Assembly: GCF_003334335.1 (NCBI RefSeq) | Contig: NZ_QOWQ01000012.1 | Length of the DNA: 64,000 nucleotides | Source of the DNA: Escherichia coli | GTDB taxonomy: Bacteria; Pseudomonadota; Gammaproteobacteria; Enterobacterales; Enterobacteriaceae | Strand: one strand, 5' to 3' | Part shown: in pieces, positions 8,442 to 34,039 of the stretch | Position numbering within the stretch: the stretch's first letter is position 1 | Layout: the number at the start of each line of letters is the position of its first letter | Position numbers and translations under genes: made by a program | Notes under the pieces: model-generated | Seen by the model: only the letters and a program-made list of their open reading frames with translations | Database searches by the model: none | What the model was told of the DNA's origin: nothing

Positions 8442-8475
8442 CTGTCATAAAGTTGTCACGGCCGAGACTTATAGT
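8442..8475 (+). promoter_or_regulatory. phoA promoter: Pho box plus -10 hexamer
   Basis: ctgtcataaagttgtcac (8442-8459) matches the PhoB-binding Pho box consensus CTGTCATA(A/T)A(T/A)CTGTCA(C/T); tatagt at 8470-8475 is a plausible -10. Confidence 0.8.
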
Positions 8476-22300: not shown

Positions 22301-22528
22301 GGTATCGCGGGTCATGAGATCATTTTGCGATTGTGAAACGTTAGAGAGACGCGGAGTTTCGTGATACAGCGCCAGACAAATGGCGTCCAGCAGGGTGGTT
22401 TTCCCCGCACCTGTTGGGCCGGTAATAGCAAACAGCCCGTTGCTGGCGAACGGCTCGCGGGTGAAATCAATCTTCCATTCGCCTTTTAATGAGTTCAGGT
22501 TTTTCAGGCGCAGGCTGAGAATTTTCAT
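19382..22528 (-). CDS. sbcC: SbcCD nuclease ATPase subunit (SMC-like, long coiled coil)
   Basis: 1048-aa ORF with N-terminal Walker A (GPTGAGKTT), a very long Gln/Leu/Glu-rich coiled coil, a central CPLCG zinc hook and C-terminal ABC signature/Walker B (LSGGE...[11 protein letters not shown]). Confidence 0.97.
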
Positions 22529-23727
22529 GCTTCGTGTTCTCCGGCGAGGGTATGCAACGTCGTGGTGAAAAGATGCTGCAGACGTTGCTGCTGCGATTCA
22601 TCCAGTTCTTCCAGTGCCAGACGGCGATTGAACACCTCTTCGACGCTGAGTTCGCTGAGGGTTTCACGCTGTTGGCTGGCTAACACACGCTCGCGCTGTT
22701 CACGACTCCGACGTACCAGCAATACTTCGACAGGCAATGATTCGGTTAATGCCTGGATTTTGCGCTGAATATCATGCAGATACTCATCAGTAGTGATTTC
22801 GATATCCAGCCAGACAGGTGGCTCCTGCGATACATCGCGCCACTGTTCCAGCTGTGCGGTAATCGACGCCAGATCGCCTTTCAGCACTGCCATGGGTTGC
22901 GTTACCGGTACGTTCAGGTTTTCCACGCTCTCTAATTTGCCGTTTGAAAATGTCACCAGATGGACATATTTACTCTTACCGCATTCATCAAAACTCAGTG
23001 GAATGGGGGAGCCGCAATAGCGAACATGTTCCATGCCGCCAATAATCTGTGCGCGGTGAATATGCCCGAGCGCGATGTAGTCGGCTGGTGGAAAGTTTTG
23101 TGCCGGAAACGCGTCCAGCGTGCCAATATAAATGTCACGCACGGCGTCACTTTTACTGGCCCCCACGGTCGTTAAATGTCCCGTGGCGATGATGGGCAGA
23201 GGCTGATCGCCGCGCAGTTTGCAGGCATCGGCATAGTGTTGTTGGTAATAATCGGTAATCGCTGCCAGTAAATGCTGCTGTTTTTCAATACCGTTAAGCC
23301 CCGCCTGGCTGGTAATAATGTCACGCGGACGTAAAAACGGAATGGGGCACAGCACTGCGCCTGGCGTCCCGTCGCGACGAGGCAAGATTTGCGGCGCATG
23401 TCCGGCGCTGGCGACCACGGTAGTATTGAGGAACGCCATGATATCGCGCGATTCATTCAGCGTGGCGACCGAGTCATGGTTTCCTGCCAGTACCACCAGA
23501 TGACAGCCAGTTTGCTGTAAATTGACAACAAAACGGTTGTATAACGTGCGGGCGTAACTGGGCGGCGAGCCGGTATCGAAAACATCACCGGCAACAATAA
23601 TCGCATCCACCTGATGGGTTTGTGCTGTCTCCAGCAGCCAGTCAAGAAAAGCCTGATGTTCAGCTTCGCGGCTTTTACTGTAGAAGTTCTGGCCGAGATG
23701 CCAGTCTGAGGTGTGAAGGATGCGCAT
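22525..23727 (-). CDS. sbcD: SbcCD nuclease subunit (Mre11-like phosphoesterase)
   Basis: Start at ATG 23727 ([13 protein letters not shown]..., calcineurin-like phosphoesterase motifs), 400 aa; stop overlaps the sbcC start (ATGA). Confidence 0.95.
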
Positions 23728-23836
23728 AACGGTTCCCTGGCGAAAAAGCATGGGCGCGATTATACCCAAACAGATGTGCCATTTGCTTTTTTCTGCGCCA
23801 CGGAAATCAATAACCTGAAGATATGTGCGACGAGCT

Positions 23837-23869
23837 TTTCATAAATCTGTCATAAATCTGACGCATAAT
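23837..23869 (+). promoter_or_regulatory. phoB promoter: tandem Pho boxes and -10
   Basis: ttttcataaatctgtcataaatctgacgc carries two 11-bp Pho-box repeats; cataat at 23864-23869 is a plausible -10. Confidence 0.85.
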
Positions 23870-23916
23870 GACGTCGCATTAATGATCGCAACCTATTTAT
23901 TACAACAGGGCAAATC

Positions 23917-24606
23917 ATGGCGAGACGTATTCTGGTCGTAGAAGATGAAGCTCCAATTCGCGAAATGGTCTGCTTCGTGCTCGAACAAAATGGCTTTCAG
24001 CCGGTCGAAGCGGAAGATTATGACAGTGCTGTGAATCAACTGAATGAACCCTGGCCGGATTTAATTCTCCTTGACTGGATGTTACCTGGCGGCTCCGGTA
24101 TCCAGTTCATCAAACACCTCAAGCGCGAGTCGATGACCCGGGATATTCCAGTGGTGATGTTGACCGCCAGAGGGGAAGAAGAAGATCGCGTGCGCGGCCT
24201 TGAAACCGGCGCGGATGACTATATCACCAAGCCGTTTTCGCCGAAGGAGCTGGTGGCGCGAATCAAAGCGGTAATGCGCCGTATTTCGCCAATGGCGGTG
24301 GAAGAGGTGATTGAGATGCAGGGATTAAGTCTCGACCCGACATCTCACCGAGTGATGGCGGGCGAAGAGCCGCTGGAGATGGGGCCGACAGAATTTAAAC
24401 TGCTGCACTTTTTTATGACGCATCCTGAGCGCGTGTACAGCCGCGAGCAGCTGTTAAACCACGTCTGGGGAACTAACGTGTATGTGGAAGACCGCACGGT
24501 CGATGTCCACATTCGTCGCCTGCGTAAAGCACTGGAGCCCGGCGGGCATGACCGCATGGTGCAGACCGTGCGCGGTACAGGATATCGTTTTTCAACCCGC
24601 TTTTAA
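23917..24606 (+). CDS. phoB: phosphate regulon response regulator PhoB
   Basis: 229-aa ORF, receiver domain (…[10 protein letters not shown]…) plus winged-helix OmpR-type output domain. Confidence 0.97.
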
Positions 24607-24663: not shown

Positions 24664-25959
24664 GTGCTGGAACGGCTGTCGTGGAAAAGGCTGGTGCTGG
24701 AGCTGCTACTTTGCTGCCTCCCGGCTTTCATCCTGGGTGCATTTTTTGGTTACCTGCCCTGGTTTTTGCTGGCATCGGTAACAGGACTGCTTATCTGGCA
24801 TTTCTGGAATTTATTGCGCCTTTCATGGTGGCTGTGGGTGGATCGCAGTATGACCCCGCCACCGGGGCGTGGTAGCTGGGAACCGCTACTATACGGCTTA
24901 CACCAGATGCAGCTGCGAAATAAAAAACGCCGCCGTGAACTGGGCAATCTGATTAAACGCTTTCGTAGCGGCGCGGAGTCGCTGCCCGACGCGGTGGTGC
25001 TGACCACGGAAGAGGGCGGTATTTTCTGGTGTAACGGTCTGGCGCAACAAATTCTTGGTTTGCGCTGGCCGGAAGATAACGGGCAGAACATCCTTAACCT
25101 ACTGCGTTACCCGGAGTTTACGCAATATCTGAAAACGCGTGATTTTTCTCGCCCGCTCAATCTGGTGCTCAACACCGGGCGGCATCTGGAAATTCGCGTC
25201 ATGCCTTATACCCACAAACAGTTGCTGATGGTGGCGCGTGATGTCACGCAAATGCATCAACTGGAAGGGGCGCGGCGTAACTTTTTTGCCAACGTGAGCC
25301 ATGAGTTACGTACGCCATTGACCGTGTTACAGGGTTACCTGGAGATGATGAATGAGCAGCCGCTGGAAGGCGCGGTACGCGAAAAAGCGTTGCACACCAT
25401 GCGCGAGCAGACCCAGCGGATGGAAGGACTGGTGAAGCAATTGCTGACGCTGTCGAAAATAGAAGCCGCACCGACGCATTTGCTCAATGAAAAGGTTGAT
25501 GTGCCGATGATGCTGCGCGTTGTTGAGCGCGAGGCTCAGACTCTGAGTCAGAAAAAACAGACATTTACCTTTGAGATAGATAACGGCCTCAAGGTGTCTG
25601 GCAACGAAGATCAGCTACGCAGTGCGATTTCGAACCTGGTCTATAACGCCGTGAATCATACGCCGGAAGGCACGCATATCACCGTACGCTGGCAGCGAGT
25701 GCCGCACGGTGCCGAATTTAGCGTTGAAGATAACGGACCGGGCATTGCACCGGAGCATATTCCGCGCCTGACCGAGCGTTTTTATCGCGTTGATAAAGCG
25801 CGTTCCCGGCAAACCGGCGGTAGCGGATTAGGGTTAGCGATCGTGAAACATGCTGTGAATCATCACGAAAGTCGCCTGAATATTGAGAGTACAGTAGGAA
25901 AAGGAACACGTTTCAGTTTTGTTATCCCGGAACGTTTAATTGCCAAAAACAGCGATTAA
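24664..25959 (+). CDS. phoR: phosphate regulon sensor histidine kinase PhoR
   Basis: 431-aa ORF with GTG start; N-terminal TM segments, PAS-like region, H-box (…[11 protein letters not shown]…) and ATPase G-boxes. Confidence 0.96.

Positions 25960-32896: not shown

Positions 32897-34039
<1,143 letters not shown>

Follow-up and report, generated by a model that had tools for sequence, protein, structure and literature searches.

The question raised by this locus is whether a PhoB-binding site lying in the short spacer between two divergently transcribed genes, sbcD and phoB, acts on both genes or on phoB only. In the 64,000-nucleotide stretch of Escherichia coli DNA that was analysed (the window), the spacer occupies positions 23728–23916, a length of 189 bp as read from the open-reading-frame list and the sequence. 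The reading that we favour, to which we give a probability of roughly 85%, is that the spacer contains two separate promoters arranged back to back, that the Pho box drives the phoB promoter (phoBp) and that a direct effect of PhoB on sbcDC is most likely absent.

Locus and gene layout

The genes that flank the spacer are as follows.

22525–23727, minus strand: sbcD coding sequence, the first gene of sbcDC, with its ATG at 23727–23725 (open-reading-frame list and RefSeq annotation of identical DNA)
23917–24606, plus strand: phoB coding sequence, with its ATG at 23917 (open-reading-frame list and RefSeq annotation)
24664–25959: phoR, which follows phoB (open-reading-frame list and RefSeq annotation)

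A first-pass annotation, made from the sequence, had described a divergent sbcD/phoB pair separated by 189 bp. The gene identities and the layout were right, as verified by the open-reading-frame list, by the RefSeq annotation and by the spacer itself, which is 100% identical to positions 416953–417141 of E. coli K-12 MG1655 (NC_000913.3; window positions are converted to this numbering by adding 393,225). A query of 901 bp with the region at its centre found matches in 5,425 of the 5,426 complete E. coli genomes, and the features beneath the matches are sbcD and phoB.

The Pho box and the phoB promoter

The following features were assigned to the phoB side of the spacer.

23836–23857, plus strand: Pho box, the PhoB~P activation site, with half-sites TTTTCATAAAT and CTGTCATAAAT; −40 to −19 of phoB (repeat, consensus, matrix and ChIP evidence)
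23858–23868, plus strand: degenerate third half-site, CTGACGCATAA, which overlaps the −10 (matrix match at 23848–23865)
23864–23869, plus strand: phoB −10 hexamer, CATAAT, 6 nt before the mapped start
23876–23916, plus strand: phoB leader of 41 nt, with the transcription start at 23876 (start-site table of Kim et al., 2012)
23855–23875, minus strand: weak antisense PhoB site over the −10, CGTCAttatgCGTCA, with tracts at 23873–23869 and 23863–23859 (matches Gao & Stock, 2018)

The 11-nt repeat TCATAAATCTG occurs twice in exact tandem at 23839–23860. The box is made up of two tandem 11-bp repeats, each consisting of a 7-bp CTGTCAT-like tract and a 4-bp A/T-rich tract, which is the architecture of Pho-regulon sites. 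When the window was searched with the Pho-box consensus CTGTCATAWAWCTGTCAY, allowing up to three mismatches, matches were found at 23836–23853, at 23847–23864 and at the phoA box (8442); three matches compare with 0.17 expected, and none of 100 shuffles gave three. We also scored the window with a PhoB matrix of 57 ChIP-seq sites from Fitzgerald et al. (2023), leaving out the two phoB sites. The top score in the whole 64 kb, 21.3 bits, falls at 23837–23854, and a second match of 13.3 bits lies in register with it at 23848–23865. PhoB occupies the spacer in vivo, as indicated by ChIP-chip (Yang et al., 2012) and by ChIP-seq, in which the site has a score of 11 (Fitzgerald et al., 2023). The first-pass annotation had placed two tandem Pho-box repeats at 23837–23865 directly before a phoB −10, under a title that speaks of tandem Pho boxes. 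The repeats are confirmed by the consensus and matrix results and the −10 is right as well, but the standard naming is one Pho box, made up of a pair of 11-bp half-sites and accompanied by a third, degenerate one.

The phoB transcription start was mapped to 416325(+) in NC_000913.2, with 18 reads and a 41-nt leader (Kim et al., 2012). Numbered from this start, the 18-bp box at 23836–23853 extends from −40 to −23, with 10 bp between its end and CATAAT. As in other promoters of the Pho regulon, the box thus takes the place of the −35 and stands 10 bp before the −10, and no TTGACA-like −35 was found at phoBp. As an autoregulatory element, the phoB Pho box has been textbook knowledge since 1986 (Makino et al., 1986), and in low-phosphate RNA-seq the phoB RNA value is 32,731 in the wild type versus 34 in ΔphoB (Fitzgerald et al., 2023).

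Under phosphate limitation, a PhoB~P dimer binds the two tandem half-sites head to tail, and phoBR is positively autoregulated. At Pho promoters PhoB~P recruits RNA polymerase via region 4 of sigma-70. Judging from the literature on these other promoters, PhoB~P bound at the present box would be expected to recruit polymerase through the same region. At high PhoB~P the weak site across the −10 also becomes occupied and phoBp is damped, giving a coupled negative feedback.

The weak site has been described by Gao & Stock (2018; PMC6194859), who reported an extra half-site beside the downstream half of the box together with a weak antisense site around the −10, the latter consisting of two tracts 5 bp apart for which the KD of PhoB~P is 4.9 µM. 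Their evidence came from gel shifts and mutagenesis, and repression at high PhoB was relieved when the antisense site was mutated. In the window, CGTCAttatgCGTCA (minus strand, 23873–23859) spans the −10, and its arrangement, CGTCA(5 bp)CGTCA, fits the published two-tract description. From this agreement in sequence we infer that these are the exact bases of the published repression site.

Several other matches to the PhoB matrix are present in the window. The phoA Pho box, CTGTCATAAAGTTGTCAC, at 8442–8459 (plus strand) scores 20.1 bits, phoA having belonged to the training set of the matrix. The third-best match in the window lies inside phoB in inverted orientation (ATTCACAGCACTGTCATA, 24019–24036, minus strand, 15.8–16.1 bits) and corresponds to the intragenic ChIP-seq peak at 417245, which has a score of 5 (Fitzgerald et al., 2023). 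This site overlies the codons for DYDSAVN. It has been eroded by synonymous changes in distant Enterobacterales, reaching at least 12 bits in 33 of 63 loci, and Vibrionaceae lack it (3 of 54); the match appears to be a by-product of the coding sequence. Two weaker matches, at 38908–38925 (plus strand, 14.1 bits) and 33494–33511 (minus strand, 13.0 bits), are probably non-functional, because neither is in the published ChIP-seq list.

The sbcD promoter

The remainder of the spacer contains the following features.

23728–23751, minus strand: sbcD leader of 24 nt, with the transcription start at 23751 (start-site table of Kim et al., 2012)
23759–23764, minus strand: sbcD −10, a perfect TATAAT, 7 nt upstream of the mapped start (read from the sequence)
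about 23766–23836, no strand: poorly conserved linker between the promoter modules, with no PhoB-like site (alignment)

The sbcD start was mapped to 416200(−) in NC_000913.2, with 29 reads and a 24-nt leader, in a single high-throughput data set (Kim et al., 2012). No −35 could be recognized on reading the sequence, and the sbcD promoter (sbcDp), which has a consensus −10 but lacks a −35, is weak. A sigma-70 two-hexamer scan of positions 23600–24050 returned no promoter, a result which agrees with the lack of a −35 in both of the real promoters and is uninformative for the same reason.

The two start sites, 23876 for phoB and 23751 for sbcD, are 125 bp apart, and the promoters stand back to back. 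Relative to the sbcD start, the Pho-box repeats are located at −85 to −113, with no overlap with the sbcD core promoter; the centre of the box lies about 94 bp upstream of this start and the box faces away from sbcD. A matrix scan of 23728–23834 for PhoB sites nearer to sbcD gave nothing above 7 bits. The first-pass annotation had argued that the sbcDC promoter must share the space of the Pho boxes. The two do lie in the same 189 bp, but with the box at this distance about 70 poorly conserved base pairs separate it from the sbcD −10.

Three further candidate elements in the spacer were considered and rejected. A terminator-like hairpin on the minus strand (23768–23751, TGGGTATAATCGCGCCCA followed by a T-run) has a 5-bp stem, with the sbcD TATAAT in its loop and the 3′ arm of the stem ending at the start site; its stem bases are not conserved in relatives and it was attributed to chance. 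A 27-nt direct repeat, 70% identical between 23764–23790 and 23813–23839, was likewise attributed to chance, and falls in the poorly conserved part of the spacer. Inverted repeats between the Pho box and 23895–23905 cannot form an RNA structure, because phoB transcription starts downstream of the box, which is thus missing from the leader RNA. An Rfam scan of 23400–24200 found no match at E-values up to 1.

Conservation across relatives

With a degenerate DNA pattern representing the N-terminus of PhoB, 120 loci were retrieved from a collection of species-representative genomes. SbcD was detected at 64 of these loci, and in all 64 sbcD is divergent from phoB. These loci belong to Enterobacterales, or to a metagenome-assembled genome with Enterobacterales-like sequence, and range from Escherichia to Photorhabdus, Providencia, Dickeya and Yersinia; the counts out of 65 given below refer to the 64 loci plus the window. 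No Vibrionaceae locus of the retrieved set has sbcD upstream of phoB.

The best matrix match in every Enterobacterales spacer is the same box, TTTCATAAAnnTGTCAyAAAnnTGACGCAT. A Pho box is present in 65 of 65 Enterobacterales loci (17.6–21 bits) and in 51 of 51 Vibrionaceae loci (14.8–21.5 bits), so that the element is conserved across both groups. A −10 of CATAAT or CATACT follows the box at exactly 10 bp in all 65 Enterobacterales. In the 51 Vibrionaceae loci, which have no sbcD neighbour, the box lies 65–105 nt from the phoB ATG and is followed 10 bp later by nATAA.

The distance between the box and the phoB ATG in Enterobacterales has a median of 79 nt and an interquartile range of 76–81 nt, and falls within 66–83 nt in 60 of the 65 loci, whereas the sbcD ATG lies anywhere between 98 and 311 nt from the box. 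Given one distance that is fixed and one that varies, a one-sided operator in a divergent spacer is therefore the better reading of the site. At the five loci L003, L033, L031, L121 and L097, the Pho box is 126–343 nt from the phoB ATG instead of the usual ~79 nt, a shift that may reflect insertions into the leader of phoB or the use of another start codon.

A footprint was obtained from a MAFFT alignment of 49 spacers. Two conserved islands are evident: one at 23837–23873, with at least 90% identity, which comprises the box and the phoB −10, and one at 23757–23765, which is the sbcD −10. The linker between them has column identities of 20–45%, values in which the variable spacer lengths may understate its conservation. 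The sbcD hexamer, TATAAT or TATACT, is found in about 60 of the 65 Enterobacterales, mostly 30–35 nt (up to ~54 nt) from the sbcD ATG. The spacer is therefore composed of two promoter modules that are independent of one another, with a variable linker between them, and the PhoB site belongs to the phoB module.

The two tracts of the repression site differ in their conservation. TGACG at 23859–23863 is kept in 63 of 65 Enterobacterales, while the tract at 23869–23873 is most often TGGCG, with TGACG in only 15 of the 65. In the Vibrionaceae loci no TGACG tract was seen within 14 nt after the box. It may be that the coupled negative feedback is confined to one lineage.

Does PhoB control sbcDC?

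The first-pass annotation had suggested that PhoB occupancy of the spacer could affect sbcDC, and had named sbcD transcript levels in a phoB mutant as the check. Such measurements have been published, and they do not all agree. In the RNA-seq study of Fitzgerald et al. (2023), which covers only exponential growth in low phosphate, the sbcD RNA value is 274 in the wild type versus 271 in ΔphoB, a difference that is not significant. Yang et al. (2012) assigned a ChIP-chip peak to both phoB and sbcD, reported a microarray log2 value of −0.64 (1.6-fold) for sbcD between the wild type and phoB::Km, and found that a plasmid-borne fusion of the sbcD promoter to luciferase differs significantly between the wild type and a phoB knockout. 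Most of the peaks unique to this earlier ChIP-chip study were judged to be unreliable by Fitzgerald et al. (2023). A study combining ChIP-exo with RNA-seq placed sbcC and sbcD among its 'hypothetically functional binding genes', a category without RNA-seq substantiation. The check is thus answered in the negative by RNA-seq, with the array and reporter data set leaving room for a small effect; on the data of Yang et al. (2012), a modest PhoB-dependent reduction of sbcD is possible. Our literature search for sbcDC together with RpoS or phoB returned no dedicated match, but the genome-scale PhoB studies do cover sbcD.

One explanation of the locus is a shared bidirectional operator, at which PhoB~P bound to the Pho box, or to the weak site over the −10, would directly lower sbcDC in phosphate starvation. 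The ChIP peak given to both genes, the array value, the reporter difference and the listing of sbcC and sbcD as possible ChIP-exo targets would all be accounted for in this way. Against it stand the flat RNA-seq values, the lack of RNA-seq substantiation for the ChIP-exo category, the position of the box outside the sbcD core promoter and the failure of the scan to find a second PhoB site nearer to sbcD. The box, moreover, does not overlap sbcDp, and the range of 98–311 nt in relatives means that neither its phase nor its position relative to sbcDp is conserved, as would be expected of an operator serving both genes. The Km cassette of the knockout used for the array adjoins the sbcD promoter and could itself alter sbcD expression. 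We regard direct repression from a shared operator as unlikely. Any effect on sbcDp could instead be indirect, with induction of phoBR changing its activity through negative supercoiling or through more local polymerase, and with no contact there between PhoB and polymerase. Supercoiling coupling between close divergent promoters is established for other E. coli pairs, the two promoters here stand back to back within 125 bp, phoB is induced about 1000-fold, and coupling of this kind could account for a small reporter effect that depends on the construct. Chromosomal sbcD RNA is nevertheless unchanged in ΔphoB, a strain in which phoBp activity is probably lost too, both of the phoB-associated PhoB sites being deleted according to the σ70 ChIP analysis (Fitzgerald et al., 2023), and we consider indirect coupling to be very improbable.

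The remaining explanation, that the repeats arose as an AT-rich duplication by chance and do nothing, has in its favour the general AT-richness of intergenic DNA and nothing else. It is already refuted by the published ChIP and PhoB-dependent expression in vivo, and it is at odds with the top matrix score in 64 kb, with the excess of consensus matches (3 versus 0.17 expected) and with a box that is near-invariant in Enterobacterales and present in Vibrionaceae; we give it practically no weight. The anatomy of the spacer, the non-conserved spacing on the sbcD side and the published expression data are best read, therefore, as two back-to-back promoters in which PhoB does not directly control sbcDC. 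What stands of the earlier suggestion is that PhoB is bound in the spacer in vivo; an influence of this occupancy on sbcDC finds no nearer site, no conserved distance and no change in RNA-seq to support it.

The transcription of sbcDC reportedly depends on starvation and RpoS. PhoB occupancy, or strong divergent transcription of phoBR, might modulate sbcDC only in special conditions, the candidate being RpoS-dependent stationary phase in the course of prolonged phosphate starvation, which we think improbable, and we infer that any conditional effect of PhoB on sbcDC is absent. If it were true, conditional modulation would link phosphate stress to the processing of hairpins and DNA ends by SbcCD.

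The phoB Pho-box region is already known, its autoregulation having been textbook material since 1986 and its negative feedback having been dissected in 2018. Three genome-scale studies have looked at whether phosphate controls the SbcCD nuclease, and the cleanest of them shows no effect; the discovery value of the locus is accordingly small. What is new here is a modest anatomical argument, namely that the PhoB site holds a fixed position relative to phoB but not relative to sbcD, together with the observations that only 15 of 65 Enterobacterales retain the downstream repression tract and that no TGACG tract was seen in the 14 nt after the Vibrionaceae box.

Comparison with known systems

The spacer described here is the same locus as the E. 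coli phoB promoter characterized previously (Makino et al., 1986; Gao & Stock, 2018; PMC6194859), from which it differs in nothing. The pstS and phoA promoters resemble phoBp in having, in place of a −35, tandem 11-bp half-sites that stop 10 bp short of the −10. In phoBp, by comparison, one full box is joined by a degenerate third half-site and by a weak repressing site over the −10.

The phoBR operon of Vibrio cholerae is also autoregulated, from a promoter with multiple Pho boxes (Diniz et al., 2011, as cited by Gao & Stock, 2018). A Pho box precedes phoB at a similar distance there, the range in the Vibrionaceae loci being 65–105 nt from the ATG. The phoBR loci of Vibrionaceae are unlike that of E. 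coli in that the upstream neighbour is not sbcD and no TGACG tract was seen in the 14 nt after the box. The cusR/cusC pair likewise has one PhoB ChIP site in a divergent intergenic region. The two pairs differ in their response to the loss of PhoB, since cusC RNA falls significantly in ΔphoB (from 208 to 50), whereas that of sbcD stays flat (274 versus 271).
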